Origin: a virus
Direction: 5' to 3' (one strand)
Length of the DNA stretch: 64,000 bases
Virus record (IMG/VR): IMGVR_UViG_3300040801_002290
Coordinates: 64,001-128,000 of that record
Below the pieces are notes generated by a model that saw only the letters and a program-made list of their open reading frames with translations, searched no databases and was not told where the DNA came from. This document shows, piece after piece, positions 14,843 through 56,402 of this stretch (position 1 is its first letter; the number at the start of each line of letters is the position of its first letter). A program made the position numbers and the translations under genes.

Positions 14843-15587
14843 AGTAAATCTCTCCCTTACTTCCTCCCGCTCCGGGCTCCCTAATTATAACCCGGTCAAC
14901 ACGAATACCGGCAGCGGAAATATCATTTATTAATGAGCGGAAACTATCTGCCCTAAAAGCCTCTAAAAGTCTATCAAAATATAAGTTTTTAACTCTTCTC
15001 CACTCAACATTTGGTGGGTAAATAAACTCCTCCATTGAGAATGTATCAAAGTTAAATATATCAACTTTTCGGTAAAGAACATTTCCATCAGAATCTAAAA
15101 CCGGAACAGAGGCATCGTAACTTTTTGGAGAAATGACAATAGAAAGTCCGTATAGAAGAGTACCTTCCGGTTCTCTTATGGGAACATCGAAGGTAGAAGA
15201 AGTACCATCAAAAGCAGTGCTAAAGCTCTCTCTGATTTCAACATCGGCTTCTATTCCATAGGTGTCCATCAATCTAGCAATGCTTCTTGAAATACCGCCG
15301 CGAGTAGCACTCTGTCCGATTGAGAAAAGAATTCTTCTTCTATACTCCTTGTCATTTTCCCCGACATTTCTTAGAACCCCAAACATGTCTCCAAGTAGGT
15401 CTAGGTAACTTCCAGAGGATTCTGGATTTATATTTGGAAAGTCCCCGTCATAGATAAGCGGAGTTTTACTACTACTTTTCTCCTCATTTATTAGATATAG
15501 ATTTGGAAGGAGGTTTCTTACCGCTGTTTTTAAAAGAGTAATACCGGAAGAAAATCCCCTGGTGAAAAAATAGAGTATTTCTCCCAT
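14832..15587 (-). CDS. Baseplate wedge protein (P2 gpI-like)
   Basis: 'SGSYLDLLGDMFGVLR..GEND.EYRRRI' motif and position. Confidence 0.7.
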   Translation of the reverse strand: MGEILYFFTRGFSSGITLLKTAVRNLLPNLYLINEEKSSSKTPLIYDGDFPNINPESSGSYLDLLGDMFGVLRNVGENDKEYRRRILFSIGQSATRGGISRSIARLMDTYGIEADVEIRESFSTAFDGTSSTFDVPIREPEGTLLYGLSIVISPKSYDASVPVLDSDGNVLYRKVDIFNFDTFSMEEFIYPPNVEWRRVKNLYFDRLLEAFRADSFRSLINDISAAGIRVDRVIIREPGAGGSKGEIYYDN

Positions 15588-40787: not shown

Positions 40788-40814
40788 TAAAAAAGGCGGG
40801 GAATTAACCCCGCC
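40788..40814 (-). terminator. Terminator after capsid/decoration genes
   Basis: GGCGGGG-ttaatt-CCCCGCC followed by a TTTTTTATT tract. Confidence 0.85.
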
Positions 40815-40834
40815 CTTACTTTAGTTAACTAATT

Positions 40835-41298: not shown

Positions 41299-42714
41299 TT
41301 AGATTACGTTTTCCTGCGCTACGTTAACGATTAGGAAGTTAAATTCCGGGGCGCGTGAGAACAAGGAGGATACGTGGCGGATAGCGAAGTCGCGGTTTAG
41401 GGTCTGGGGTAGCGGAACCTGCTCAAGCGGAATCCACTGTGCAAGCATGGTGGTCATAAGGTCTACACCAACTACGAATCCAGTTCCGGGGACCTTGCGG
41501 TAAGTAAAGGTACCGTAAGCTGAAACAAGGGTCTCGTGTCCGTCGTCAACTACGTTGACAGTTCCACCAGCGTATACAGGAACCTTCTTGAGGAACTTGA
41601 AGTCGCCGCCAGCGTCGGAACGGTAAACAATTAGCCACTTGGCACCGGCAGGAACAGTTGCTACAGCAAGCTGAATCTGCTGTCCAGCAGTTGGGGTTAC
41701 GGGTGCGCCAGCTTCTACGGCTTCGGACTCTCCGTTGAAGTTAGCTGCCTTTACCATGTAGTTATACTCGATTGCCTCAAGACCGGCGTTTCCAGCAGCG
41801 TTGGCCTGAGCGGTCAAGGTTACTGCGGAAGGTGCGGCTGGACGTGCGAATTCTCCACCAGTGTTACCGAAGCCCTGGTCAGTGAACTTGTGCCAGTCAC
41901 CAAGGAAACGGTCGGTTACTAGCTCGGTCTCACCGTAAGCAGAGATGTAGGTCTGGGCATCGGTTCCGAGTACGCCAGCTACGCGGTCTGCCTGGGTGGT
42001 ACGAGCAATCTGGTAGAAGCTCTGCTGTAGGTTAATCTTGTCAACAGGTGACATCATAACTACGTTCGGGCGAGCAAGTCCCTGGGTTAGGTAGACCTTG
42101 TTCTCTGCGGCCCATAGAGCGTTTAGAGAAAGCGGGCGTCCACCCAAGTCAGTTACGTTCTGCGGGGCACCGCGCTTGACGATGTTCTCAAGGCCGTCGA
42201 ACTGTAGGTTCTGCGGGCTGGAGAAATCGGTTGAACCGAAGCGGCGGTCTCCGTGGAAGAGTAGGTACTCGGTTTCTTCCATGACGGCAACCATCTTTTC
42301 GGTGCGGGCGGTCTGCTCGGCGGTCTGAACACCGGCACGGGTGGTGGCAACAGCCAATTCCGTGATGGTGATGCGGTGTCCGAGTAGGGTAGGTAGGGTG
42401 CGCCTACGGGCTACTTCTACTTCGACGGTACGAGGAACGCCACCGTCGCGGTATGCGGCGTAACCAATCTTGTCCTGACGGCTGGTTACGACGTTGTACT
42501 CATGCTCGTAAGCAGTGGCCTGAATCTTCTGGAGCCTGTCGTAGAACGGGGTTTCCAAAATGTTTAGACGCTCTAGTTCACCTTCTAGGTCCTGACGCTC
42601 CAAGCTCTGGGCAACCTGGCTGGTTCCGTCAATGGCCTTAAGAACATCTAGGGGCAGATGCTCTAGGTAATCTAGGTGGTCTGCGTAATTTCTCTGAACG
42701 ACTTCTTTAGACAT
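41299..42714 (-). CDS. Major capsid protein with FN3-like insertion
   Basis: Follows protease/scaffold; 'L.RQDL...L......TPFY..L.K..A....HEY', 'LF.GD', 'FDGL'; strong codon bias; SPO1/Twort-like pattern. Confidence 0.92.
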   Translation of the reverse strand: MSKEVVQRNYADHLDYLEHLPLDVLKAIDGTSQVAQSLERQDLEGELERLNILETPFYDRLQKIQATAYEHEYNVVTSRQDKIGYAAYRDGGVPRTVEVEVARRRTLPTLLGHRITITELAVATTRAGVQTAEQTARTEKMVAVMEETEYLLFHGDRRFGSTDFSSPQNLQFDGLENIVKRGAPQNVTDLGGRPLSLNALWAAENKVYLTQGLARPNVVMMSPVDKINLQQSFYQIARTTQADRVAGVLGTDAQTYISAYGETELVTDRFLGDWHKFTDQGFGNTGGEFARPAAPSAVTLTAQANAAGNAGLEAIEYNYMVKAANFNGESEAVEAGAPVTPTAGQQIQLAVATVPAGAKWLIVYRSDAGGDFKFLKKVPVYAGGTVNVVDDGHETLVSAYGTFTYRKVPGTGFVVGVDLMTTMLAQWIPLEQVPLPQTLNRDFAIRHVSSLFSRAPEFNFLIVNVAQENVI

Positions 42715-42736: not shown

Positions 42737-44395
42737 TTATAACTTGCCTTTATCAGCCATCTTGACGAAGTGCTTGAATTCTGGCTCTGAAAGGTTTAGG
42801 GTTTTTTGGGCCTCTTCCACAATGCGGGCGCGTTGCTGAGCATGTGCCCCAGTGTGTCCAATGATTGAGCGGTACTTTTCAGTGAATGACTTAAGTACCG
42901 TCTTGTCGTACTGTCTCTCTTCCCCGTCCTCAGTCACAGCCTTGATAACATCAAGCTTGGCTACCTCTGCGGCTTCTTCACCAGTTACAGAAGCACCTGG
43001 ATGTACTATTCTAGGCGATTCTTTTGAAGATGTCACGCTTTTGGTAACGATAGTGCTTTCTTCGGACAGCTTAGTGACAATACTTGCTGCGATTCTCTCT
43101 TCCATGTCGGCAAAGCCGCTCTGGAAAATAGACTTTAGGGCCTCGCCAAACTGAGTTGCAGAGTCTTCTGAAAGACTTACGGTTAGAGAGTCGAGGGATT
43201 CCTTAATGACCGACTTGATTATATCGGTTGGGGGTTCCGTAGTTACTTGCTCTTCGACAGGAGCTTCTTCCATCATTTCAGTAGCCTGAGAGGAGTCCGT
43301 TAGCTGCATGACCAAATCAATAAGGGTATCAACCTTATCCAATAGCATCTGAACGGAGGCATCCCCGTCTCCTGCCATTGCGTCAACTTCCTGACCTTCC
43401 TCAGAAGTTACTAGGCTGTCTAGCAAACCGCCAGCATCCTCTTCTCCTGCCTCAGCAGCACCTAGTTCTGCCATTTCCTCGGCTCCACCCTCTTCCATAG
43501 CGCCTTCTTCCTCACCAGCGAATGGTGCCTCAGCAGGGGCTTCTTCCATGGGTGCGCCTTCGGCTTCTGGAGCGGCTCCCTGAGCCTCTTCCTCTTCCAC
43601 CGGAGGGGCAGCTTTTAGTACAACTTTAACATCTTCTGCCATAGCGTTTCTAATTTCCTCCTTAACGTTTACATACGATTCGAAAACGTGAGTGGTTCCG
43701 TCCCCACCCTGAACGGTTGATTTTATAACCAACCTATCGTTTTCTTGGTCAAACAGCACGGAATCTGGTGCGATTGTGTGGTACTGAACTTCTTTTGTCT
43801 CCTCTTCATCGACCAGCATACTCTTTAGCACAGACGCCCAAGTCTTTGTGAATGGGTTTACGGGCTCCGGGGTCATAGACACTTCGTAAAGAAGAAGCTC
43901 TGGCAAATAGGTAACGTACTTACCCTTTTTGACATCGTACTCCCTACGAGGACTACCAAGATATTTAGCACCGATGGAGAGGCCGATTTGGTCGGCAAAG
44001 CTTGTGTCCTTGTTAGTAAGGAACTCCTCCCACATCTTTCTTGCCATCGGGTGAGACTTATTGAGAATTCCCTTGATGTATAAACCTTCTGGTCTAATCT
44101 GTGCATCAAGGGGCTTTCCAATTGGGGTCTTTAGACTTAGAATTTCGTCCTTGGAAAATCCGTACTTGCCCAACCAGTCATCATTCTTCTTAGCGTAATC
44201 GTGGTCGAAGTATATCTTTCCGTTGGACTTGAAAAACTCTATGGTCTGGGAGAAACTTTCTGGGTATACAACCTCACCGAATAAATCTACATCGGCGGTA
44301 GAAGCAATGCCTTCAAAGACCCAAGGCTCTTCTTCATTAGCTGAAAAAGATTTGGTAATGTCTACGGGCATGTAAAAATGAAAATTTCTATCCAT
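42737..44395 (-). CDS. Prohead protease (HK97-type) fused to acidic scaffold
   Basis: 'FEGIAST..VD..GE', 'YFDH', 'IGKP', 'GLYIKG', 'GLSIG', 'LYEVS.T..PVNP', followed by a long acidic region. Confidence 0.9.
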   Translation of the reverse strand: MDRNFHFYMPVDITKSFSANEEEPWVFEGIASTADVDLFGEVVYPESFSQTIEFFKSNGKIYFDHDYAKKNDDWLGKYGFSKDEILSLKTPIGKPLDAQIRPEGLYIKGILNKSHPMARKMWEEFLTNKDTSFADQIGLSIGAKYLGSPRREYDVKKGKYVTYLPELLLYEVSMTPEPVNPFTKTWASVLKSMLVDEEETKEVQYHTIAPDSVLFDQENDRLVIKSTVQGGDGTTHVFESYVNVKEEIRNAMAEDVKVVLKAAPPVEEEEAQGAAPEAEGAPMEEAPAEAPFAGEEEGAMEEGGAEEMAELGAAEAGEEDAGGLLDSLVTSEEGQEVDAMAGDGDASVQMLLDKVDTLIDLVMQLTDSSQATEMMEEAPVEEQVTTEPPTDIIKSVIKESLDSLTVSLSEDSATQFGEALKSIFQSGFADMEERIAASIVTKLSEESTIVTKSVTSSKESPRIVHPGASVTGEEAAEVAKLDVIKAVTEDGEERQYDKTVLKSFTEKYRSIIGHTGAHAQQRARIVEEAQKTLNLSEPEFKHFVKMADKGKL

Positions 44396-44464: not shown

Positions 44465-46558
44465 TTACTTCTGTGGCTGTGAAAAACTCAACCCAGGGAT
44501 AAAATTAGAGGACTTTTGTGCGTTCCCGAAAAACTTTAGAACCTCAACCATGTCTGCTTGTTGTGGTCTGCCGCCTTTTTCTGCCATAAAAAGCCTACCG
44601 TTGTCTTTTCCGCGAAGAAGAGTGATAGACTTAGCTCCGTCTGAGACCTGGAATGCAGAGCCTGGAACAACAGTGTTTACCTGTAGCCCCCTTTCTTTTA
44701 CAAAGTCTGTGAAGTCTGTTAGGAAAGGAGTATCATCCTTATGAATAAAATCCTTAAACCCAAATACTCCTATTTCAGGAGTGGGCTCCTCTGACTCTTC
44801 AAGATTATTTTCGATAACCTTTCTGGCCTCGCGCAAAGCCTTCATTCTAGCCTTTACCGCACTTTCTCTGTCACTCGTCTTCTGAACGAAAACCTCTCCA
44901 ACCTTAGCTCCCTCTGGAGAGAATACCGGCCAGGTTCCACTTGGGTCTGGAGTAAGCTTCCACCCTTCGGGTGAAATGAAGGAGTCTCCAACCTTCTCAA
45001 AACCATGCATTGCTACGGGCTTCTTTATCTCGCTTGGGACCTCTAATTCCTTCTTCGGCTTTTCCTCTGGTCCCTTGGGCTTATGATACAGTTTAAGAGT
45101 TCTGTTCTTGTACATAGCCCGCTGTCTAGACTCATCATCAATGATGTTTCCTATTAGGTCTGGACCTTCACCCTTTTGTCTACCGGTGTTAAGAGAGGCG
45201 TCCTTCCACTTATTCTGAAAAGACCTAGCAGATGGATTTTCTTCATTAAGTAGGGAAAATGCGTGAATACCGTCGATTCTTCCCAGTCTGGCAGCTATCT
45301 CTTTCATGGCCTGGACTTTAGCCTGGGTAGTTCCGTTACTGGCTTTTGCCGCAAAGCGAAGGATTTCTTCCATTTCTTGTTCTATATCAACAGACATTCC
45401 GAGAGTTACTTTTCTCTGGTACACAGAGGAAAACTCAGACTTATGAATGGCATGAAGACCCTTAGACCCGTCACTCAATTCGGAAGCAACCATAGCTCTA
45501 TCCTTCTCTGGAATAGAGTCGTATAGTCTGGCTAGGGTGTGAAGAGCAACTCTGTTTGCACCGGCAGCAGGGGAGTTTTTAAAAGCCTTAAATACACCAT
45601 AAAGAGCGGTGGACTCTTCCCTCGTATATTCATCAGGAAGTTCCTGTGGAATACTTTCTCTGCTCATAGTGCTTTCTGCCATAGGCTTCATCGGAACAAA
45701 GGTTTCTTTGCCGGTGGTAAAGTCTTGATACATCATAGAATACTTAGAGTCCAACATCTCAGATAGCTGAGAAAATGACTCGGTGTTATTCCTCATATTT
45801 TCTCGTAAATTCTTAAGACCCAATATGATGTTCGCATCGAAGAAATATTCTCTTCCATCCGGTCTGTATTCTTTATACCGGTCGTTTAGATGCTTTTTGA
45901 GGGTCGGGTAATTCTCTTCAAGTTCTTTTTCGAGAATTCCCTTTAGGCTGATTTTAGAAGGACTCGCCCCGTCCCTTGCCAACTCCGATGCACGGACCAT
46001 AAGAACATCAAAAGCCTGAATTAGAAACCACTCGACAGAGTTTGGTTTAATGTCATTCTCCTTAATTATTCTCTCTGTGTATCCTTTAAGGTAAGACTCC
46101 CACCCCCTGTCGGGTAAATTCTTTCTGGGTACAGTTGACTCCTTATTGGCTTCGTAAGTTTGCTTTCTTTTTTCATGTAAAACGTGTGAAGGTACACCCT
46201 GCTGCTGGGCTTGATTCTCAAGAGCCTGCTGGTAATACTGCTGGGCGTGCTGATAATATTGTTGCCTTTGCTGGTTGAAGGCTTCTTCATATTGCTTTTG
46301 CAATTCTGGGCTTATTTCTGCCGCCCGCTCAAGCACATCTAGCTGGTCCTCAATCTGGTTAAGTTGGGTCTGGTCAGCAGGGTCAATCTCTACCCCCTGC
46401 TCTAAAAGCCATTCGGCATATTCCTCGGCGGTAACCTGAATAGGGGTTACTTTTCCGTTGATATTTCTGAATATGACGTGCTTACCGGAATCATCTAAAT
46501 AAAACTCATCCGTTGCACGAACAGATTTTAGTATTCTAAGTGACTCTATAATGTTCAT
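44465..46558 (-). CDS. Large hypothetical protein (putative internal head protein)
   Basis: 697 aa; N-terminal 'ILKS' and 'KHVIFRNINGKVTPI'; Q-rich stretch. Confidence 0.7.
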   Translation of the reverse strand: MNIIESLRILKSVRATDEFYLDDSGKHVIFRNINGKVTPIQVTAEEYAEWLLEQGVEIDPADQTQLNQIEDQLDVLERAAEISPELQKQYEEAFNQQRQQYYQHAQQYYQQALENQAQQQGVPSHVLHEKRKQTYEANKESTVPRKNLPDRGWESYLKGYTERIIKENDIKPNSVEWFLIQAFDVLMVRASELARDGASPSKISLKGILEKELEENYPTLKKHLNDRYKEYRPDGREYFFDANIILGLKNLRENMRNNTESFSQLSEMLDSKYSMMYQDFTTGKETFVPMKPMAESTMSRESIPQELPDEYTREESTALYGVFKAFKNSPAAGANRVALHTLARLYDSIPEKDRAMVASELSDGSKGLHAIHKSEFSSVYQRKVTLGMSVDIEQEMEEILRFAAKASNGTTQAKVQAMKEIAARLGRIDGIHAFSLLNEENPSARSFQNKWKDASLNTGRQKGEGPDLIGNIIDDESRQRAMYKNRTLKLYHKPKGPEEKPKKELEVPSEIKKPVAMHGFEKVGDSFISPEGWKLTPDPSGTWPVFSPEGAKVGEVFVQKTSDRESAVKARMKALREARKVIENNLEESEEPTPEIGVFGFKDFIHKDDTPFLTDFTDFVKERGLQVNTVVPGSAFQVSDGAKSITLLRGKDNGRLFMAEKGGRPQQADMVEVLKFFGNAQKSSNFIPGLSFSQPQK

Positions 46559-46827
46559 AGATAATCCAAGTTAGTTGCTGGGAATCCAAACCTCTGTGCC
46601 TCTACTTTCAACTCTTCAATCCATTCGATTAGCTCTGCTTCTTCTAGGGTGGGATATTCTCCCTTTAAGGCATAGAAGGATTGTAGGAAGTCAAAATACT
46701 CGTTGAATAGGGTGCCTTCCGGGTCAGAGATTTCTTTGGGCATGTGATGAGTAACTACGTCAAAGTCTCTTTGCGCGTACAACTCAGTAAGTGTTCTTAA
46801 CGCGAAGCGTCTCTCTTCATCTATCAT
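46555..46827 (-). CDS. Hypothetical protein
   Basis: ATGA overlaps at both ends. Confidence 0.65.
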   Translation of the reverse strand: MIDEERRFALRTLTELYAQRDFDVVTHHMPKEISDPEGTLFNEYFDFLQSFYALKGEYPTLEEAELIEWIEELKVEAQRFGFPATNLDYL

Positions 46828-49800
46828 AGTCGTCCCGCCTCTTCCTCTCTAATCCTCGGTCTGTATTGAGACATTCTCTTCAAGAAGGACATTGCTTCCT
46901 TCTCGTCAATATCATCTTCTTCCTCAGAAGCACCAGTAAGAACAGCGCCCCTGGTCTCAAGCTCCATCTTGCGCTTCTTCTGTTCTACTTCCCTCATATA
47001 TTGACATATACCATCTGGAACTACAACTGTTACCAGATTTTCTTGGCTGGGACTTCTATGGAATCTGCCCTCATACTGACCAGCCTTGGCTGAATTCCAT
47101 GTAGCAAGCCTAAAGCTTCTGGTAGAAGGAAGAGAAAGTCCGTAAAGTCCAGCGGAGGTAACGATAGTAATTACTGGTCTACCAGTTTCTGTCTGGTGCC
47201 TCTTCTGCTTCACGCTAACTTCTTCCGCTGGAGTGTCACCGTCAATAATCTGAATGACTGCCTTATCCCCGTATTTTTCTAGAAGCTTTCTATACACAGC
47301 GTTCATGGCAACCTTTGAGAACCCGGCCACACCAATTTTCGGAGGCTCTCCGGGAACTTGGTTAACAATCTCTGTCTCAATTCCATCTACAATAGAATCA
47401 AGAATTGGAGCATCCCACGAAAATACCGCTCTGTCCATAGCCGCTCTGGATGTTTCACTGAAAACAGCATTGTAGACAGCATTTCTTTCATTTACATCGC
47501 CCGACTTAGGCAAAATTCCTACACCAAATGACTCTTCGGTAACCTGGTTTCTGAATTCAAGCAATTCTTCACGGAATTTTACGTAGTCCTCTGGCTTTAG
47601 AATCTTAGACACTGAGTCCATCAATTCTCTCGCGCCCAAATCGTACTCTATAATTCTGGCTGGGCTCACAGCACCAAGCGAGGCTTGAGTTAGAACACTC
47701 ATTAGACCTAGAGCTTTTCTCATCTTCTTAGCTTCCGCTAGAGCCTGTAGCTTTCTTTCAGCGGCGAGATAAACTTTACCCCAGGTAGAACCCAACTCTG
47801 AGCCTATGTCAGTAGTTCTAGCAAGACCGTACTTATCTCCAGCGATTGTTTGTCCATCCAGAGTATAGATTTGCGGTCTAAACGTAGAAGTAAAGTCATT
47901 CATTCTTCTGACATCCTTCCAGATTCTTCGCCCCAAATCCTTAGATGCTCTAGTTTGCTGAGCATCGTGGTCCTTTTTAGTGTATTCATGCACCACAGTG
48001 TTGTAGTTATCCCTAACCAACTTATTTATAAAGGAAACCTCGGACACCGTATCACTAGCTGAGTTACCAGAAATATCACCGTTAAGGCTCCAGGTCAATC
48101 CTCCACCCTGATAAGTGGACTCAATAATCTCATGCAAAGCAGTATGTCTGGAGGAGCCTGGGTTTACGTATTGGCCCGACTCATCTATTACTATAGCGGA
48201 GACATGTCCCCCAGCTACGGGCTTTTCTCTATAAGAGCCCCCCAAGGCAAGAAGCTTCATGTACTGAGCATCTAACCCTAGCAAGTCTTCTTCCTCACCG
48301 GAGGTGTATCTGAACTTGGAGCTACCCAAAACAATCATGTTGGGTAGGTTACCAGTCTGGGCTCTGCTAATCAAATCTTCCCACTGGGCGGTGCGGGTCT
48401 CTCTGTCTCCATCAATGACAATAGCGTCTTCGTTTCTGAATTTAGCAATTTCGGACTGCCAAACATAAACATTCTTGTTTGGAGCAGTAACAATGGTTAC
48501 TTGCTCTCCAACCTTGAATCTACCTCTGTTTCTCATAATGGCGTCAGCGGCAGTTACGATAGCTGTCTTTCCAAGTCCGTAGGTAAAGTTTAGAAACTGA
48601 CCATGCCAACCCTGTGGTCCACCATAAATCTCATACTGAGACTCTTCGGTAAGTGCAAGTATTCCTGGACGCTGATAGTCAAACGGCTCCATAACGAAGT
48701 TTGCATAAAGTCCGTGCAAGTCATCCAGGGGAATCTTACCGGCCTCTTTTGAGATTTCATGTCGCCCGGTAACTTCGTTATACTCAGCCGTCATTGCCTT
48801 TATCTTCTTCATGTTCTCAGCGGCTAGTTTATACTTCTCTACGTACTCGGCACTTCTAGCCAGGTCCAGAGTCAGGCGTGTAGATGACATCTGATTAATC
48901 TCCATGTTGCCCTGGCCCGGAAGTGAAAACTTAAATCCGGAGGAAACATCTAAATTCTTTTCCGTCTGAACTACTCCACTCTCAAGACCTGTGATTAACT
49001 GAGGTGTCAACCCCGTGATAGAGGCATACATTTCTCTATCTGATTCATCAATGCCTAGGGTATCAAAAACATACCAAGAAAGTTTCTCGTACCCCTCGAT
49101 GGGCGGTGGCCAGTTCTCTGAGAGTAGTGCATACCCCGTAGTTGGAGAATACATAATTCTTCCGGGGGAAAGCGAGGTAGGTGTTGGGGCTTCTGGAACA
49201 ATTTCTTCTTCCCGTGGTTTCATTACCTCAGAAAGACGCTTACCAGATTGAGGCTTGAAATCAGTGTAATAGTACTCGCCTTCTTTTCTCTCTTCGTAAA
49301 CCTTCTCGTCTGCTCCGGGGTGGTATTCCTGAACATACATGTCCATATTTTCTTTGTCGGATTGGCGTTCTTCCGGAGACATATTTTCATAGGGGTTTTC
49401 TACTAAAGTCCAATCGGCATCTTCTTTGTCGATATTAGCGTTTATCCAACCACCAGCGGCGATAGTCCTTCCGTCTGTATGGACGGCTATATACCCTGTA
49501 GGCACACGCCTCACGATTCTTTCGCCCTGAGCATTATTATAAATATCACTAGCGGACTTGGTTACAAGAAAACCTAAGTCTAAAAGATTAATGGATTTAT
49601 GGGTTTCGTTGACAAAGCGGCAGTTATACCCCTTCCAAGAAAGAATCTCTGGCAATGCCTCTAAAAACTCTATTGTGTTCGGATAGACAACCAAAACACC
49701 ATCAGCAAAGAAGTTGGGACCAAAGCGGCCCGGAGCAAGAATGTACGCTTCGGTTGACATTAACCGCTCTATATGCTGCTTCATCTTTACATTGTCGCTA

Positions 49801-49901
49801 TAGACAGAGGTAGTAACAGTACCATCCATCTGATTGTATGGAACAATCTCGGCGGTACTCTTATCCATTGAATCGTTTATTAGGCTGACTTTATAGTACA
49901 T
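46824..49901 (-). CDS. Diverged SNF2-family (SF2) helicase/ATPase
   Basis: 'LNFTYGLGKT', 'VTAP..NV..W..EI.KF', 'IDESG', 'IIDGDTP', 'TSAGLYGLSL', 'QYEGRFHR'. Confidence 0.8.
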   Translation of the reverse strand: MYYKVSLINDSMDKSTAEIVPYNQMDGTVTTSVYSDNVKMKQHIERLMSTEAYILAPGRFGPNFFADGVLVVYPNTIEFLEALPEILSWKGYNCRFVNETHKSINLLDLGFLVTKSASDIYNNAQGERIVRRVPTGYIAVHTDGRTIAAGGWINANIDKEDADWTLVENPYENMSPEERQSDKENMDMYVQEYHPGADEKVYEERKEGEYYYTDFKPQSGKRLSEVMKPREEEIVPEAPTPTSLSPGRIMYSPTTGYALLSENWPPPIEGYEKLSWYVFDTLGIDESDREMYASITGLTPQLITGLESGVVQTEKNLDVSSGFKFSLPGQGNMEINQMSSTRLTLDLARSAEYVEKYKLAAENMKKIKAMTAEYNEVTGRHEISKEAGKIPLDDLHGLYANFVMEPFDYQRPGILALTEESQYEIYGGPQGWHGQFLNFTYGLGKTAIVTAADAIMRNRGRFKVGEQVTIVTAPNKNVYVWQSEIAKFRNEDAIVIDGDRETRTAQWEDLISRAQTGNLPNMIVLGSSKFRYTSGEEEDLLGLDAQYMKLLALGGSYREKPVAGGHVSAIVIDESGQYVNPGSSRHTALHEIIESTYQGGGLTWSLNGDISGNSASDTVSEVSFINKLVRDNYNTVVHEYTKKDHDAQQTRASKDLGRRIWKDVRRMNDFTSTFRPQIYTLDGQTIAGDKYGLARTTDIGSELGSTWGKVYLAAERKLQALAEAKKMRKALGLMSVLTQASLGAVSPARIIEYDLGARELMDSVSKILKPEDYVKFREELLEFRNQVTEESFGVGILPKSGDVNERNAVYNAVFSETSRAAMDRAVFSWDAPILDSIVDGIETEIVNQVPGEPPKIGVAGFSKVAMNAVYRKLLEKYGDKAVIQIIDGDTPAEEVSVKQKRHQTETGRPVITIVTSAGLYGLSLPSTRSFRLATWNSAKAGQYEGRFHRSPSQENLVTVVVPDGICQYMREVEQKKRKMELETRGAVLTGASEEEDDIDEKEAMSFLKRMSQYRPRIREEEAGRL

Positions 49902-50796
49902 GTCCGTAGTCCTTAAGTATACCTTCGATTAGGTCCAACTTCTCAGGAAAAGCTCTTTCAAGATACTTTTGATTGGTGAAGTAAAGAGCGAATAACTCAG
50001 CGAAGTCATCCATTGGTGTGAACTTACTAGCCTCGGTCTTTACCCTTTTCCCCAGACCGCGCTTCCAAACAGTCTCTTCGTTTACGTACTCAAGATAACC
50101 AGCCTGAGTGTTCTCATTAGATTCATGCTTAGACCAACCACTGAATTCTAGTAAAGAGCCTAACTGCTTTATCTTACCATCATGCATGAGTCTTGCAAAC
50201 ATTAGGTGTCCAAGGGAATGAAAAACAGAGTAAGCTGCAACACTAAGTCCCTGGTCTAGCCCTGGAATTTTCCCTATTAGAGGGGCAGAGACATACTTAT
50301 AAAAACTAGGGTAGACTATCAGCTTTCCGGTAAATCCGTTTCCGGAGGTGTACTGAGCCTTGATTACGGTTTCTCCGTAAATAGACAAAGCATCCTGTTC
50401 TTCCCTAGTACCAGCATCCACATAAGATAGACCCAAAGACTTTATGAAACTATCTCTTCCATCAAGAACATCTACCAAGACGGCTGATGAATATTTAGGA
50501 ACATTGGAGTTGATGTGAACCCCGGAAATTTCTGGAGTCCAAGCTTCCAGCCTCTTCTCGTCAACATTTCCTGCATCATCATAAATAGGTAGTTTTTTAG
50601 ACACAAGTCCAGCATTGTCAGCCTGAGCCAAAGAAAGGCTTGACAATTCGTCCATTGTAGGGGCGAACTGACCACCACGGTACACACCGCCGCCCGGTGT
50701 GGGGTCTCCAGGCATAATAGGAGAACCTGGTTCTCCAATTCTGGTTCTAAGAAGCCTTTTGTCAATTTTACCAGTTTCAGGCATCTTTATCTCCAA
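49891..50796 (-). CDS. Zincin-like metallopeptidase-fold protein, catalytic Glu absent
   Basis: 'VFHSLGH' at the HExxH position plus downstream 'DDFAELFALY'; N-terminal 'GGQFAP'. Confidence 0.55.
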   Translation of the reverse strand: MEIKMPETGKIDKRLLRTRIGEPGSPIMPGDPTPGGGVYRGGQFAPTMDELSSLSLAQADNAGLVSKKLPIYDDAGNVDEKRLEAWTPEISGVHINSNVPKYSSAVLVDVLDGRDSFIKSLGLSYVDAGTREEQDALSIYGETVIKAQYTSGNGFTGKLIVYPSFYKYVSAPLIGKIPGLDQGLSVAAYSVFHSLGHLMFARLMHDGKIKQLGSLLEFSGWSKHESNENTQAGYLEYVNEETVWKRGLGKRVKTEASKFTPMDDFAELFALYFTNQKYLERAFPEKLDLIEGILKDYGHVL

Positions 50797-51124
50797 AGCT
50801 GGAAAGAACGTCGTATAGAGTTTTCTCTGCGTTTGGAATCTTCATATTCACAGAGGAAATCTTTTCCTGAAAGTATTTAGCTAAGGACTTTGCGTCGTTG
50901 TCATTGTACACCCTGACATCTCCAAGCCCTAGGTTAGAAAATAATAAATTCTTAGAACCGTCGATTATATCGTCCAGAGAAAAGTTATGAAGAATAGGAG
51001 TGTACCCATCGCTCTTTCTGAGTACATAGGTAACCTCTCCGTCTGAAACGTAAATTTCCTTAAGCTCAAACTTATTGTCTTGATTATACATAACACGAGA
51101 AGATATCTTTAGCATTTCATTCAC
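50777..51124 (-). CDS. Hypothetical protein
   Basis: Overlap-coupled ORF within the cluster. Confidence 0.65.
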   Translation of the reverse strand: MNEMLKISSRVMYNQDNKFELKEIYVSDGEVTYVLRKSDGYTPILHNFSLDDIIDGSKNLLFSNLGLGDVRVYNDNDAKSLAKYFQEKISSVNMKIPNAEKTLYDVLSSFGDKDA

Positions 51125-52605
51125 CCCACGATAATCTTTCTGGCTTTTTCAAAATACCGCTTGATACCTTCAAACTGGTATGGGTAAGAGGACAGGTCCA
51201 AGTTGTAAGAAGCTATCTTAGTTTTAACATTCTCTGGGACAGAGTTTATCATTGAGGAGAGAACCTCTGGATTAGTCACAGAAAAGAAGGTTTGAAAGGA
51301 CTCGGGCGAAAGCTCTCCAAATTCTCCTAGAGAAAGTGTGTCCAATACACCTTCATCCATCGTAAAGTAATCTAGAGAGTGGTTACTGAAAACCTTTCCG
51401 GAAACACTATCCACAGAGAATGAGGACGGGCTGAACCACATGTTTCCAAGAAGAAGTCCGTCTATAACAACCAATGTTGAGATACTAGCCATCAGGTTGG
51501 AAGAAAAACCAGAGGAACGCTTTGATGAAAACACTCTATTAATAATGTCAAGAGTTTCACTAAACGTAGCATCTGAAAATTCAGCCGGGTAAAGTTCTGT
51601 CATCAATGCAATTGTGTTCCTAAAGTCCTTTATTTCTACGACCTCAGGGAAAACTACTTTGGTGCCTTGCAATAAGTCCATCTTTACTTTAGCGGCTATA
51701 GAGGAAAGTAAGTACTTGTTAACCATGTAAGGCTTGTTTACATCATCCTCTACAGCCTTCATGCTATAGCGAGTTTCGCCCTTCTCAAAAATTGCTTTTT
51801 CTGAGAATGGGAAGGTTAGCTGGCTGGAAAGTCTATAGCCCTCTTTGTAAATATCTACCATAGAAACACCGTCAATTATGGTGTTATACCGGGAGGACTT
51901 TTTAAGTATTCTTCTTAGGGCGTTGTAATTGATTACATAACCCGCAAATTTATCATCAGAAACTCTGGCCAAAAGAACGTCTAGGTTTCCAGTTGCAGCT
52001 AAAGAGTCTGCATCGTGACCAAGTGTTTTTGCAAGGGCGGAAATCTTAGAAGCAACTCCGTCTTCTAAGAAAACATGGGCAGAAGATTCATCAAATGAGA
52101 GGGTGGCAACCTCTTTAAATAAAGGAGCCCTACCCGTCATCTCAATAATTCTCTGTAAGTCTCCGTTTACCAACCAGTACTGGTTTGCTTCCTTCCTTAT
52201 TTGCCATCCCTTTAGAATCATCTGCTCTGAGTAAAGAACAATTTCCTTATCTGTCTTGCCATCTAAGTCCTTGTCCTTAAGGTAGTGAAAAATTCCCATA
52301 TGATTCTCAGAACCGAAAATGTTTTCTAAAAGAGCTTGTCTATATCTACTAGCATACCCTAGAGTAAGTAATTTGGAAGCAACATAGGGCTGTAGTATCT
52401 CTTCCAAACTGTCGCTATACAAAGCTACAAACTCCTCTGTAACTATATCTGGTAGAGGAGCTAGCCTATTGGGGTCTCCAAGAGTAGCATAGACAATCTG
52501 CTTCTTTTGGGCCTTTTTGGGTTTGGAGTTTTTAGCCCTCGGTGAACTCTTCGTCACAGTTGGCTTAATGTTATCAAGTATTTTGGAAAAGTCTAACTTT
52601 AGCAT
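51121..52605 (-). CDS. Protein with degenerate HipA/PI3-4-kinase-like C-terminal domain
   Basis: 'YSMK......MVNKYLLSSIA...FPEV' and 'IDGLLLGN......VD...GKV..NHSL..F'. ATG at 52605 with SD AGAGGA; the track's TTG start lies in the promoter. Confidence 0.5.
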   Translation of the reverse strand: MLKLDFSKILDNIKPTVTKSSPRAKNSKPKKAQKKQIVYATLGDPNRLAPLPDIVTEEFVALYSDSLEEILQPYVASKLLTLGYASRYRQALLENIFGSENHMGIFHYLKDKDLDGKTDKEIVLYSEQMILKGWQIRKEANQYWLVNGDLQRIIEMTGRAPLFKEVATLSFDESSAHVFLEDGVASKISALAKTLGHDADSLAATGNLDVLLARVSDDKFAGYVINYNALRRILKKSSRYNTIIDGVSMVDIYKEGYRLSSQLTFPFSEKAIFEKGETRYSMKAVEDDVNKPYMVNKYLLSSIAAKVKMDLLQGTKVVFPEVVEIKDFRNTIALMTELYPAEFSDATFSETLDIINRVFSSKRSSGFSSNLMASISTLVVIDGLLLGNMWFSPSSFSVDSVSGKVFSNHSLDYFTMDEGVLDTLSLGEFGELSPESFQTFFSVTNPEVLSSMINSVPENVKTKIASYNLDLSSYPYQFEGIKRYFEKARKIIVG

Positions 52606-52623
52606 GTGTTGTCCTCTTTGAGG

Positions 52624-52653
52624 ATTATACCACAGAACTTTAGCGGAGTCCAA
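52624..52653 (-). promoter_or_regulatory. sigma70-like promoter
   Basis: TTGGAC-18-TATAAT with TGTGG extended -10. Confidence 0.7.
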
Positions 52654-52655
52654 AG

Positions 52656-52684
52656 AAAAAGCGGGATTGAAGCCCCGCTTTTAT
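52656..52684 (-). terminator. Terminator (possibly bidirectional)
   Basis: AAAAGCGGG-attgaagc-CCCGCTTTT flanked by A/T tracts. Confidence 0.8.
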
Positions 52685-52702
52685 TATAGACTTTAATTTA
52701 TT

Positions 52703-54688
52703 TTATGCCTTATCAGCATCTACAAACTTGCCCTCAGCAGTGACCGTGGTTCCCCTCTTCGGGTGACCTGGTTCGTTTGCGTATTCTTTAGAAGTAAGAA
52801 TTGTATGGGGTGCCTTTTCCTTCATAGCCTTGCCCTGGGCATCAAGAGAATCCTTTCTCTTTTTGTCATCAGGCCAACTGCCAACGTCCGGGTTGTAGCC
52901 TTTTAGAACATCCTCTACAATTTCTGAAACAGACTTCTTGCTATCGTCAAGTGTGGAAAGTACGCCAGAAACGATGTCAAGCATAACGGACTTTAGACTT
53001 TCTCCCGAAAGAATCGCCGCTCTTACCTTGCTGCTAGACTTCTCTTCCTTAGGCTTTGCTTCCTTCTTTTCCTTACTAGCCAGGTACTTATCCTCTCGGT
53101 TAATTACCTTATCTTCCCAGAACTTGGACTTCAATACTTCCTGAACAATGTCTGAGACAATGGACTTAGCTACCTTCTTTACCTTTGGAGTTTGTGGAGA
53201 GTCGTCGGAGTAATCATCGTCGTCGTTATCGTCATCGTCCTTTCCTCCCCAATGGCTGTCGAAGTATGCTCTACCATAAATTCCGCTATCCCCAGGAATT
53301 CCACCACCGGAATTCTTATCATACGCTTTTCGTAATTCCTTCTGGCTCTCTTCTGAGTCTGCAAAACCAGAGCCATCAGAGCCGTGAGAGTGAGGTGGTT
53401 GAACCATAGATTCGCCCTTTGGACCCTTGTATCTGTGGGCTAGTACTGTGGCTGGGTTTTTTCCTGCTGCATCAAGTTGCTCATCCATGTGCTTGGTTGG
53501 GTTCTTAACATCGTGAACAACCGTGTCCTTGGGCATTAGTTTCTTGTCCCCACGAAGAGTGTCCTTCTTGGGGTTGTACTTAGCTCCCTTCACAACACGG
53601 TTTCCGAAAGCACCAACAGCCTCTCGCTGAGGAATTTCGTCAACGATAAAGCGCATTCTAGGACCAAACTCTCTTCTCTCTGAGGTTGTGGTGGGACGAA
53701 CCTTATAAAGACTAGGGTCTGGGTTGTTCCAAGCGCGTGCCTCACTTAGGGACTTAAAAACAATTCCCTTCTTAGTGCCGTGCTTCTTGTCCCAGTTTCT
53801 TGCTGCTTCTGCATCAGTTTTTCCATAATCTAAAGCCGCATCACTCATGCCACCAACCTGTCTCTTTGGCTTCTTGGCATTGAATTCAGCATCGCTCATT
53901 TCTTCTAGCTCTCTGTCCTTTGCGGCGTGGTAATCATAATCCGCTTTCTCGTAGTCAGCGTCTGAAAAAGCCTTTTTAGCGTCTTCCTCCTTAAGGTCTT
54001 CTTTCAGGGGCTTGTTTGTAGCTACTGCATTGTCAATTTCGGCTGCTCTTGCGCCCTGAGGAGCAAACTCACCAAACTTATCGTAATGGTCCTGATAGGG
54101 GTTGGTCTTTGGCATTTTAATGCGAGCCTTCATAGTGTCTGGCTCTTCTGCGGACTTCTTGGTGTCCTTACCCTTACCCTTCATCTTCTTTGCTTTTTCA
54201 TCTACCATTTTTCCAGCGGCGTCATCGTCACCCTTTTCTGGTTTTGATGTGCCCTGAACATCGTCATCCATCTTTGTTTCTTTCGGGGAGAGGTTCTTCT
54301 TGATAGTCTCTCTGACTGACTTGGACACAAGCTCATTGATAGGCAAGTCACTTCCAGAGGACAATTCTTCAATAACCTGTTGAACAATAATGGAAGCTAA
54401 TTTTCTGCCGTGCTTCTTGTCATCCCAGTCCTTAGGGTCAATACCATCAGCGTTTTCAAGCTTTTCTTTCATTGGGGCATTTTTCCCGCTGTGCCCTGGG
54501 TGAGTTCTGGATGGGATTGAATAAGGCTCCTTGGGAACAGTAGATACTGGACGGCCCTCTGAAATAGCTTCATGGGTGGCGTCCATATCCCCCTTTTCAT
54601 AGTCAGGTTTGGCGACGTAACCAGCCAGCTTTACGTCTTCTGACTGTAGAGCCTCTAATAGACTAGTTTTAAGAGCTTCGTAGTCCAT
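52703..54688 (-). CDS. Highly charged, low-complexity putative prohead core protein
   Basis: 661 aa, K/D/E-rich, many xxKS motifs; SD GGGAGG. Confidence 0.75.
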   Translation of the reverse strand: MDYEALKTSLLEALQSEDVKLAGYVAKPDYEKGDMDATHEAISEGRPVSTVPKEPYSIPSRTHPGHSGKNAPMKEKLENADGIDPKDWDDKKHGRKLASIIVQQVIEELSSGSDLPINELVSKSVRETIKKNLSPKETKMDDDVQGTSKPEKGDDDAAGKMVDEKAKKMKGKGKDTKKSAEEPDTMKARIKMPKTNPYQDHYDKFGEFAPQGARAAEIDNAVATNKPLKEDLKEEDAKKAFSDADYEKADYDYHAAKDRELEEMSDAEFNAKKPKRQVGGMSDAALDYGKTDAEAARNWDKKHGTKKGIVFKSLSEARAWNNPDPSLYKVRPTTTSERREFGPRMRFIVDEIPQREAVGAFGNRVVKGAKYNPKKDTLRGDKKLMPKDTVVHDVKNPTKHMDEQLDAAGKNPATVLAHRYKGPKGESMVQPPHSHGSDGSGFADSEESQKELRKAYDKNSGGGIPGDSGIYGRAYFDSHWGGKDDDDNDDDDYSDDSPQTPKVKKVAKSIVSDIVQEVLKSKFWEDKVINREDKYLASKEKKEAKPKEEKSSSKVRAAILSGESLKSVMLDIVSGVLSTLDDSKKSVSEIVEDVLKGYNPDVGSWPDDKKRKDSLDAQGKAMKEKAPHTILTSKEYANEPGHPKRGTTVTAEGKFVDADKA

Positions 54689-55914
54689 TATTCCTCCCTT
54701 GCAGGAAGTAAGTCTTCTACTACCTCGTCAATGATGGACTTTAGAATCTGCTCGTCGTCCAACATGCTCTTTAGTGCGTCTACTTTCTTAGCCCTGGCTT
54801 CTACGGCATCGGTGCCACCGTCATCGGACACAGACTCTGGAGCGGTAAGCCCCTGAGTCCTCTTATCGGCTTCGGTGGAAGTAGCAGACTTTAGAGAGTG
54901 TTCGTACCACTCAAAGCGTCCACGAACTACGTACTTAGCGTCTTCACCAAAAAGCTTTCTTTCGCTTTCTGAAACAGGAGCCACCTGGTAAACACCGATA
55001 TCTGGGTTCTTCCAAGCACGGGCTTCATCTACTGACTTGAAGGTCATGTACATGTAATCATCGGCGTCTTCAACGCTCTTACGGGCAGTATTTCCGGGCT
55101 GGGCTAGAACTTCCTTACCTGAGTTATGGTCAGCTTCGTGAGTTGCAGAGTCAACTGCCTCGTCACTTACTGCCTCGCCGTCCATTTCTGGGTCGCGTAC
55201 ATCTGCGGCGGGGGCGTCATGCTCAAACCCGGCCTTAGCTTCTGCGTCAGAAATTGCCTCGTTGTCCCTTAGGGCATGTCCAAAGTCAGCGTTTTCAGTA
55301 GCTTCACCCATTGAGGCGAGAGCTTCTGAATCCTCAAGAGCCTTCATTACCGTCTCTAGGGACTTGATAACCATTTCCGCGTCGGTACTTACTTCACCAT
55401 CGAAATCGTAGGTGTATTCTCCAGCGGACTTTAGGGCGTCCTTCAAAGCTGAGGAAATGTAGTCCTTAACCATCTTATGCCACTTCTCAGTTAGGCACGG
55501 TCCAAAGGAGTCTACTTCCATGTAACCCTTGTCCATCATTACCTTGATAATTTCTCCAACGTCGCTCTTCTTTAGAACATTAACAACGGGGGACAAATCT
55601 TCTTCCATGATAACGTGGCTAGCACTTGGCATTGGGTTAACCGGTGGCAACCCAAGCGGGTCCATGAGGCTACCGTAGGACTTTAGTGTTTCAGTATCTA
55701 CAACCTTGGCATTTGGGTACTTAGAACGCATGAGACGAGCCCAGTCTTCCGCACCAGCAGAAGTCCTCATGCTCTTTAGGACTATAGCTTTCTTCGTCAT
55801 TTTAACTCCTTTTTTGGCCTTTTTGATGGAAGCCTGACAAATAGCCCAAGCGGAGGATTCATCGTGACCCTCGTCCATGAGCTTCTTGACGCATCTGTCT
55901 AGTTTTTCTGGCAT
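54688..55914 (-). CDS. Putative prohead core protein
   Basis: N-terminal 'MPEKLDRCVKKLM..G..ESSAWAICQ' small domain; ten KS motifs; acidic. Confidence 0.75.
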   Translation of the reverse strand: MPEKLDRCVKKLMDEGHDESSAWAICQASIKKAKKGVKMTKKAIVLKSMRTSAGAEDWARLMRSKYPNAKVVDTETLKSYGSLMDPLGLPPVNPMPSASHVIMEEDLSPVVNVLKKSDVGEIIKVMMDKGYMEVDSFGPCLTEKWHKMVKDYISSALKDALKSAGEYTYDFDGEVSTDAEMVIKSLETVMKALEDSEALASMGEATENADFGHALRDNEAISDAEAKAGFEHDAPAADVRDPEMDGEAVSDEAVDSATHEADHNSGKEVLAQPGNTARKSVEDADDYMYMTFKSVDEARAWKNPDIGVYQVAPVSESERKLFGEDAKYVVRGRFEWYEHSLKSATSTEADKRTQGLTAPESVSDDGGTDAVEARAKKVDALKSMLDDEQILKSIIDEVVEDLLPAREE

Positions 55915-55931
55915 ATTTAACACCTGTGGAC

Positions 55932-55961: not shown

Positions 55962-56363
55962 TTAAGACTCAAGAAACCTTTTGAATCTTTCTACCTCGGA
56001 TTTAGAGGGAACATACTCCTTCATATCCGGTGAAGATAAAAATGCCGCGCTTCTTCCGCTTATTTGCATAAGTTCCTTCTTTCCTAGGTATTTCAGTTTA
56101 TGAGTTCTAGTAAAGATGGACAATAGAAGCTTGTCTTTCTTTGAGAGGCTTCCCTTTACTTCTACATATGTTCCGTATGAGGGAAGATAAAAATCCGGTA
56201 GATAGCTTAGACTCTTAGAGAAGAAGAACCTTCTGGGCTCATACATGAAGTATATGTCTCCGTATAGTAGTAGCTTGGCTACGTATACTTCCCATCTACT
56301 TCTGTATTTTATTCCTCTATAGGTAGTTTCAGAACCCTTTTTAAATACTCGTTTTAAAGGCAT
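55962..56363 (-). CDS. PD-(D/E)XK endonuclease (T7 endonuclease I / resolvase-like)
   Basis: 'YRSRWE..VA..L...I...YEP......Y.PDF.LP....YVEVKG'. Confidence 0.85.
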   Translation of the reverse strand: MPLKRVFKKGSETTYRGIKYRSRWEVYVAKLLLYGDIYFMYEPRRFFFSKSLSYLPDFYLPSYGTYVEVKGSLSKKDKLLLSIFTRTHKLKYLGKKELMQISGRSAAFLSSPDMKEYVPSKSEVERFKRFLES

Positions 56364-56402
56364 ATTCACCAGAATAACAAATCCTGATGAATATTTCTAT
56401 GA

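Follow-up and report, generated by a model that had tools for sequence, protein, structure and literature searches.

The 64,000-nt window analysed here, bases 64,001-128,000 of the 194,021-bp IMG/VR virus record IMGVR_UViG_3300040801_002290 (CheckV completeness estimate 97%), carries a block of eight open reading frames (ORFs) immediately before the prohead protease and major capsid genes of a tailed phage. This block occupies positions 44,465-55,923 on the minus strand, and the stops and starts within it overlap or nearly abut. An earlier note, made from the letters of the sequence, had pointed to a co-oriented gene run at this place, and all eight ORFs proved real, on one strand and with the coordinates proposed. 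In the direction of transcription they encode an acidic core- or scaffold-like protein (54,688-55,914), a charged paralogue of it of 661 amino acids (aa) (52,703-54,688), a kinase-like protein of 494 aa (51,121-52,605), a protein of 112 aa with no assigned function and no family match in Pfam or PHROG searches (50,777-51,115), a zincin-like protein of 297 aa (49,891-50,784), a SNF2/SWI2 ATPase of 1025 aa (46,824-49,901), an acidic protein of 90 aa (46,555-46,827) and a mostly helical protein of 697 aa (44,465-46,558). The likely true starts were set by orthologues, which place that of the first ORF, called the 411-aa protein below, at ATG 55,914 (408 aa) and shorten the kinase-like ORF from 510 to 494 aa (start 52,605), the zincin-like ORF from 301 to 297 aa (start 50,784) and the small ORF between them from 115 to 112 aa (start 51,115). 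Downstream on the same strand follow the prohead protease (552 aa, 42,737-44,395; phrog_32465, 2.7e-21), in which a protease part at about residues 1-220 is succeeded by an acidic tail, and an SU10-type major capsid protein (471 aa, 41,299-42,714; SU10_MCP, 3e-15; phrog_752, 1.7e-64). No terminator-like hairpin with a 10-bp stem was found inside the block in a scan of the coding strand; the first strong one (10-bp stem, 40,792-40,817) comes after the capsid gene and an Ig-like (decoration) gene. A scan for sigma-70-type promoters gave nothing above chance.

Related loci were gathered with a SNF2 profile, two from IMG/VR and seven from metagenomes. The gene order nuclease, acidic protein, kinase-like, 112 aa, zincin-like, SNF2, 90 aa, 697-family, protease and capsid was the same in loci L005, L010, L012 and L013 and partial in L006-L008, and in every relative the block stands directly upstream of protease and capsid. 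Identity to these relatives is 69-85% for the capsid protein and 21-54% for the block proteins. Orthologues of the 112-aa protein were present in L005, L008, L010, L012 and L013, and the 90-aa gene always follows that for SNF2. No relatives at the DNA level were found among deposited phages, nor did tblastn searches of deposited phages with the SNF2 and 697-aa proteins return close relatives. The nearest cultured relatives are the Thermus phages phiYS40 and TMA (capsid protein identity 51%), which have, in the same order and orientation, the zincin-like gp080 (E 1e-48 to the 297-aa protein), the SNF2 protein gp079 (1,524 aa; orthologous at E 3.6e-27) and the small gp078 (E 3.6e-5 to the 90-aa protein). 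In phiYS40, gp078-080 are followed downstream by two giant proteins of 1525 and 1744 aa and then by protease 074 and capsid 073; in the region examined, the acidic, kinase-like and 112-aa proteins had no detectable orthologue. Since the block is kept in the metagenomic relatives and, in part, in phiYS40 and TMA, while Bacillus phage SP-10, whose capsid protein is more distantly related, shows a plain portal-protease-scaffold-capsid order, the gene orders compared indicate that it is a trait of the phiYS40-like lineage. The linkage to head genes for which the earlier note had asked is therefore present in five diverged relatives and, in part, in the two Thermus phages.

The SNF2 ATPase (phrog_62, 3.5e-9) consists of N-terminal domains, a linker containing K102-S103 and K115-S116, a first ATPase lobe, a long insertion and a second lobe. 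The 47 metagenomic relatives listed are about 1,030 aa long, and PF00176 is recorded on 9 of them. A profile of 28 sequences matched Ino80, Rad54, ISWI, SsoRad54, Rad5 and Fft3 over both lobes (E 1e-7 to 6e-4). G442, G444 and K445 of motif I (GLGKT), D573 and E574 of motif II (DE) and Q942, R946 and R949 of motif VI are invariant in all 28. The features by which SWI2/SNF2 proteins are recognised, two RecA-like lobes with motifs I (GxGKT), II (DExx) and VI (QxxGRxxR) and a significant profile match to established members, were all found, and because the three motifs are invariant the ATPase is probably active. A separate superfamily 2 (SF2) helicase is encoded among the early genes of the replication region. 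In a 202-kb relative the SNF2 orthologue (1,405 aa, L005:8969-13186) contains a LAGLIDADG-type intein (P0017, PF14528), and its alignment breaks near the ATPase core. A segment just behind the linker, G-E-R-I-V-x-x-V-P-x-G-Y (about residues 115-135, window 49,500-49,560), resembles the N-termini of phiYS40 gp076 and gp077 (V-K-x-V-P-E-G) and may be a docking module shared with them; the profile match of SNF2 to gp076 is weak (E 0.02-0.04).

The 297-aa protein belongs to a family of 26 whose metal-site region matched Peptidase_Mx in 8 of 26 members (best 4e-4), Peptidase_Mx1 in 8 of 26 and ATLF in 4 of 26 (best 2e-4), the best E values across these three families, 2e-4 to 1.5e-3, all lying below the Pfam gathering cut-offs. 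A weak match of the family profile to the C-terminal helix of the Pro-Pro endopeptidase PPEP-1 (E 0.3) was also seen. The zincin signature HExxH with its catalytic Glu was not found in the family; it is replaced by H-[S/A/T]-x-G-H in 22 of the 26 (H-S-L-G-H in the window), so that both His and a downstream D-D-F-[AS]-E with the metal-ligand Glu are kept and the catalytic Glu is missing, and a divergent branch of four members has also lost the His. The most conserved part is an invariant Pro/Gly-rich peptide at the N-terminus, which phiYS40 gp080 shares. Judged by its motifs, the protein is zincin-like and probably catalytically dead.

In the 494-aa protein a disordered, Lys-rich N-terminus and a conserved helical half precede a C-terminal fold of the PI3/4-kinase/HipA type. 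Its AlphaFold2 model, built from 14 sequences, had a mean predicted local distance difference test score (pLDDT) of 79 and a predicted template modelling score (pTM) of 0.73. Foldseek returned VPS34 (probability 1.0), PI3K, mTOR, ATM, PRPK and CtkA at E 2e-4 to 2e-3, and also COQ8A. With VIA, residues 245-494 matched PI4K-II-beta (Z 11.7; root-mean-square deviation 4.0 over 210 residues), CtkA (Z 11.0), actin-fragmin kinase (Z 9.4) and HipT (Z 8.9), and a viral structure library likewise returned kinases. The model thus has the bilobal fold of the atypical kinases (PI3/4-kinase, HipA, actin-fragmin kinase). Conservation lies mainly in the helical half, and within the kinase half it is confined to L386, G387, D399 and F414; of the residues expected of atypical kinases (ATP-binding Lys, catalytic-loop Asp/Asn and metal-binding Asp), no conserved Lys in the N-lobe strands and no conserved catalytic Asp were found in the family, the catalytic positions having been mapped from the secondary structure of the model and not by superposition. 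On this model the protein is best read as a pseudokinase. The earlier note had called a diverged SNF2 ATPase, a zincin-like domain without its catalytic Glu and a HipA/PI3-4-kinase-like domain without its catalytic loop: the first is borne out by matches to solved structures at E of about 1e-7 and by the invariant motifs, the second by the sub-threshold matches to three Pfam families and the altered metal motif, and the third by the structural comparison that the note had suggested.

Phages of the phiYS40 type are not known to encode an RNA polymerase, and the SNF2 protein might act as a RapA-like factor on the host enzyme, driving late transcription with the pseudo-enzymes as adaptors. Functions like that of RapA have been suggested for SNF2 proteins of phages (PMC7824862), but the profile search rows list only eukaryotic and archaeal remodellers, with RapA not among them, no RNA-polymerase-binding domain was recognised in the protein, and it would be awkward for a factor of late transcription to be encoded within the very operon that it has to activate. 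This explanation is regarded as very improbable.

The two charged proteins at the head of the block (pI 4.7, the value for the 411-aa protein; 19% acidic with 18% basic residues) are paralogous through a common 41-aa module (E 3e-11), in keeping with the core-like character suggested for them earlier. The 661-aa copy is extra to this genome; five relatives have a single acidic gene at that place. It repeats the peptide S-[IV]-x-x-[DE]-[IV]-V-[EQ]-[DE]-[VL]-L, which also ends the 411-aa protein, and contains a run of Asp (window 52,703-54,688). Residues 1-40 of the acidic protein form a Cys-containing module, K-L-D-R-C-V-x-x-x-M ... A-I-C-Q-A-S, common to L005; in L012 the module stands on a separate ORF of 340 aa, and therefore behaves as a mobile module.

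The 697-aa protein begins with an 11-residue leader and ends in a tail at residues 683-697. An exhaustive profile search placed 34 representative clusters in its family at E<=0.001, and the hits listed all match the family profile itself. Full-length members found in this way range from 646 to 1,726 aa, shorter rows looking like fragments, and lengths of up to 1743 aa occur in relatives; the conserved N-terminal part of about 540 residues is followed by low-complexity linkers and variable extensions. The AlphaFold2 model is mostly helical (pLDDT 80, pTM 0.44), with residues 1-11 and 680-697 disordered. No Pfam or PHROG family match, no Atlas lead and no Foldseek match at E<=0.001 was obtained; the best VIA-wide hits, helical bundles of transporters at Z 7.4, are at chance level for helical models. 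In one long relative (P0088), residues 1003-1061 of the variable C-terminal extension gave a ParB_N match of 1.1e-4, below the cut-off, and no Pfam domains were found in thirteen other long members.

A candidate maturation site, hydrophobic-Lys↓Ser/Ala (h-K↓S/A), was tested by calculating its enrichment over the 166 genome ORFs of at least 120 aa. The capsid protein has such a site, L-K26↓A, before a strictly conserved arm in six of six capsids, that of phiYS40 included. The highest enrichment in the genome was that of the 411-aa protein, with nine sites against 1.7 expected (z 5.5), and the second highest that of the protease (8 sites, z 5.1). Orthologues in four other genomes repeated this, with z 2.4-7.1 for the acidic proteins and 4.6-8.0 for the proteases. 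K50 and K296 of the acidic protein are conserved in five to six of six sequences. The protease starts with a capsid-like leader, P-h-D-h-x-K↓S/A, and has seven or eight conserved K↓S/A sites in its acidic tail, which is probably a scaffold. In the 697 family K11↓S/A is invariant (26/26) behind a variable leader of 9-37 residues; under the deduced motif, this is the short N-terminal leader ending in a protease cut site that marks T4-type internal proteins. Both the leader and the very end of the C-terminus carry N-[FIL]-[IL]-x-x-[LF]-x-[FIL] in about seven members, the C-terminal copy standing just after a K↓S (K682↓S in the window), and the two copies resemble each other and covary within a protein. 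SNF2 keeps K102-S and K115-[SA] in 27 of 28 sequences inside an otherwise variable, gapped linker. It had been claimed that most of the block proteins carry protease sites; conserved sites were found in four of the eight ORFs, and the zincin-like, kinase-like, 112-aa and 90-aa proteins have none. In the TMA phage, assembly proteins are reportedly matured by a trypsin-like cut. Elsewhere in the genome, a 257-aa protein near the portal repeats the N-terminal arm of the capsid protein, here preceded by I-L-R↓A (genome 139,736-139,816; L015:237-317, minus; 56% identity over 27 residues, E 2e-5). The sole other terminal match to the tag, N-L-L-P-N-L-Y-L at residue 25 of a 251-aa tail-region protein (window 14,832-15,587), may be due to chance.

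Taken together, these findings suggest, at roughly even odds (about 0.5), that the block encodes a module of the head interior, specific to the phiYS40-like lineage of myoviruses, whose SNF2 protein is packaged and delivered with the DNA. In favour of this reading are the conserved order beside protease and capsid, the tight spacing and the lack of a strong hairpin until 40,800; the K26 motif of the capsid, the top enrichment in the 411-aa protein and protease, the invariance of K11 and the K-S pairs of the SNF2 linker; and the invariant ATPase motifs of a protein encoded apart from the SF2 helicase of the replication region. From the domain identities, synteny and motif statistics observed we infer a course of cleavage, packaging and ejection, and a target, as follows. 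The module would be transcribed together with the protease and capsid genes. At least three block proteins look built into the head and trimmed there. The acidic tail of the protease and the two acidic proteins look like a degradable core, which would be chopped at the hydrophobic-Lys↓Ser/Ala sites and disposed of, and the 697-family protein looks like a tagged head-interior protein: a short address peptide at each end would bring it into the prohead and be trimmed off at sites of the same type. A single cut in the linker, behind the first ~115 residues, may trim SNF2, which would remain inside the head, probably together with its constant neighbours (the dead zincin, the pseudokinase and the proteins of 90 and 112 aa). 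The ATPase would then leave with the DNA and act as an ATP-driven translocase on the incoming genome, stripping or blocking, for example, host DNA-binding or defence proteins. The candidate sites speak for incorporation into the head of the acidic proteins and the 697 family, and perhaps of SNF2; for the zincin-like, kinase-like, 112-aa and 90-aa proteins the one argument is their fixed adjacency. Packaging and injection of SNF2 are plausible by analogy with P1 DarB, T4 Alt and internal proteins (PMC5512222).

Several observations weigh against this interpretation. Synteny of the same kind would result from a late-expressed helicase that is not part of the virion. The cut motif is short and inferred. 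Half of the block proteins, namely the zincin-like, kinase-like, 90-aa and 112-aa ones, showed neither conserved sites nor enrichment in their families, and over its whole length SNF2 shows no enrichment either. Proteins lying beside an active protease would be expected to avoid its sites, yet no clear avoidance was seen, with observed/expected ratios of 0.92 for SNF2, 0.83 for the kinase-like protein and 0.70 for the zincin-like protein against 0.98 for the genome. In phiYS40 the enrichment is confined to gp073-075 and absent from gp076-081. Finally, Pfam and PHROG searches of the block ORFs and their long relatives found neither a methylase nor any known head-anchor domain such as MuF or Dar.

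The absence of cut sites from the zincin-like, kinase-like and small proteins would also suit a different division of labour, in which only the acidic proteins and the 697 family are in the head, and SNF2 and its four partners form a late, unpackaged complex that prepares replicated, branched concatemeric DNA for packaging, either migrating its branches or removing proteins bound to it, alongside a resolvase-like nuclease. The gene for such a nuclease (135 aa, 55,962-56,369, minus strand; phrog_9019, 2.2e-20) lies outside the range originally reported and heads the syntenic block; it has the same place in L005, L010 and L012 (54-61% identity), which favours this alternative, but no copy was found in L013. 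Large myoviruses have SNF2 helicases for which a role as substitutes for UvsW has been suggested (PMC7824862), and the intein in one SNF2 orthologue points to an essential, conserved ATPase site. Several features argue against such a complex. The replication region already supplies an SF2 helicase; its genes stand on the opposite strand, at a distance of 40 kb; the two K-S dipeptides are kept in the SNF2 linker; and the position of SNF2 between head proteins is fixed in every relative. An unpackaged complex of this kind is a serious alternative, though less likely than not.

A more specific version of the packaged module is offered tentatively, as a proposal with less than an even chance of being right. 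Phages of the phiYS40 type would load a SNF2 motor of the chromatin-remodeller type, stably complexed with a metal-binding dead zincin and a pseudokinase, and deliver it with the genome. Loading would rely on an undescribed address system in which the same short peptide stands at either end of a cargo protein and each copy is removed at Lys↓Ser/Ala.

Among the other features of the genome, sheath, tube-like, tape-measure-like and lytic tail proteins are encoded downstream of the capsid gene, which identifies the phage as contractile-tailed, and tail-fibre genes lie upstream of the head block. The replication genes are on the opposite strand at the start of the window. A disguised terminase or portal within the block was considered and rejected, both genes having been located elsewhere, the portal 30 kb away at genome 143,705-145,981 (PF04860, 5e-30; phrog_37955, 4e-150) and the large terminase TerL 66 kb away at genome 40,953-42,884 (42% identical to phiYS40 TerL). 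The Terminase_6N, Terminase_6C and TerL_ATPase models matched nowhere in the genome. The neighbour of the portal at genome 146,109-148,250 (L015:6610-8751, minus) is a family-A-type DNA polymerase (phrog_17, 8e-97) and not a terminase. This genome is unusual in how widely its genes for head, packaging and replication functions are scattered. The family profile of the protease matched no solved structure.

If the proteins are in the virion, they would represent a head-delivered SNF2 motor without a methylase partner and with two conserved pseudo-enzymes, widening the known repertoire of injected proteins, and the two-ended tag and K↓S/A code would allow head cargo to be predicted across the lineage. 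Should they stay out of the virion, the block would instead suggest that DNA is remodelled late, in a step linked to the assembly of heads. The cultured relatives phiYS40 and TMA allow packaging to be tested directly.

SNF2, lethal-factor-like zincin and kinase folds recur in polyvalent and Dar-type proteins (PMC5512222), and the earlier note had regarded the block as a split polyvalent set. The shared domain repertoire and the head-gene context, a late or packaging setting being usual for polyvalent proteins, uphold that comparison; it fails on fusion, MuF, methylase and HExxH. Polyvalent proteins combine two to fifteen unrelated domains in one polypeptide, whereas here the domains are on separate ORFs in all relatives, and no fusion was seen among proteins of 563-1794 aa. 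The name is an analogy, then, and not a statement of membership. As in the Dar/DarB polyvalent proteins of phage P1 (PMC5512222), an SWI2/SNF2 and a putative lethal-factor-like zincin lie by head genes and are proposed to be delivered with DNA; unlike them, the block has no adenine methylase, no MuF and no single fused polypeptide, and its zincin is without the catalytic Glu. The kinase fold also differs, being of the PI3/4K/HipA type where polyvalent proteins have a truncated Ser/Thr kinase (PMC5512222). A true split polyvalent or Dar-type anti-restriction system, with all eight products packaged, cut by the protease and injected against host defence, is accordingly unlikely: the overlap in domains (PMC5512222), the sub-threshold ParB_N match in one 697-family extension and, as leads, MuF- or ART-bearing phage proteins among the structural neighbours of the kinase-like model stand against the missing methylase, MuF and HExxH, the catalytic degeneracy of two of the three enzyme folds and the lack of sites in half of the proteins.

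In phage T4, the internal proteins IPI-III and Alt bear capsid-targeting sequences that the prohead protease gp21 removes, and are injected with the DNA. The short N-terminal leader followed by a cut motif, and co-assembly with a degraded core, would be common to both systems, the latter being predicted here from sequence. The motif is h-K↓S/A in place of the L/I-x-E of T4, the 697 family seems to be tagged at both ends, the genes form one fixed block before the protease, and the cargo would be much larger, including a SNF2 motor. In phiKZ-like giant phages, inner-body and ejection proteins are cut by the prohead protease at S/A/G-x-E. Many head-interior proteins encoded together, paralogues and a short cut motif are points of likeness, predicted here from the genes, while the capsid lineage and the motif are different and the present phage has no virion RNA polymerase. 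Closest are phiYS40 and TMA, with orthologues of the 90-aa, SNF2 and zincin-like proteins in the same order and two giant proteins in place of the 697 family. By analogy, the set would work most like T4-type tagged internal proteins combined with enzymes of the Dar or polyvalent type; what sets it apart is its K↓S/A code, a tag at either end of the cargo, conserved pseudo-enzymes next to an apparently intact motor, and the link to cultured Thermus phages.

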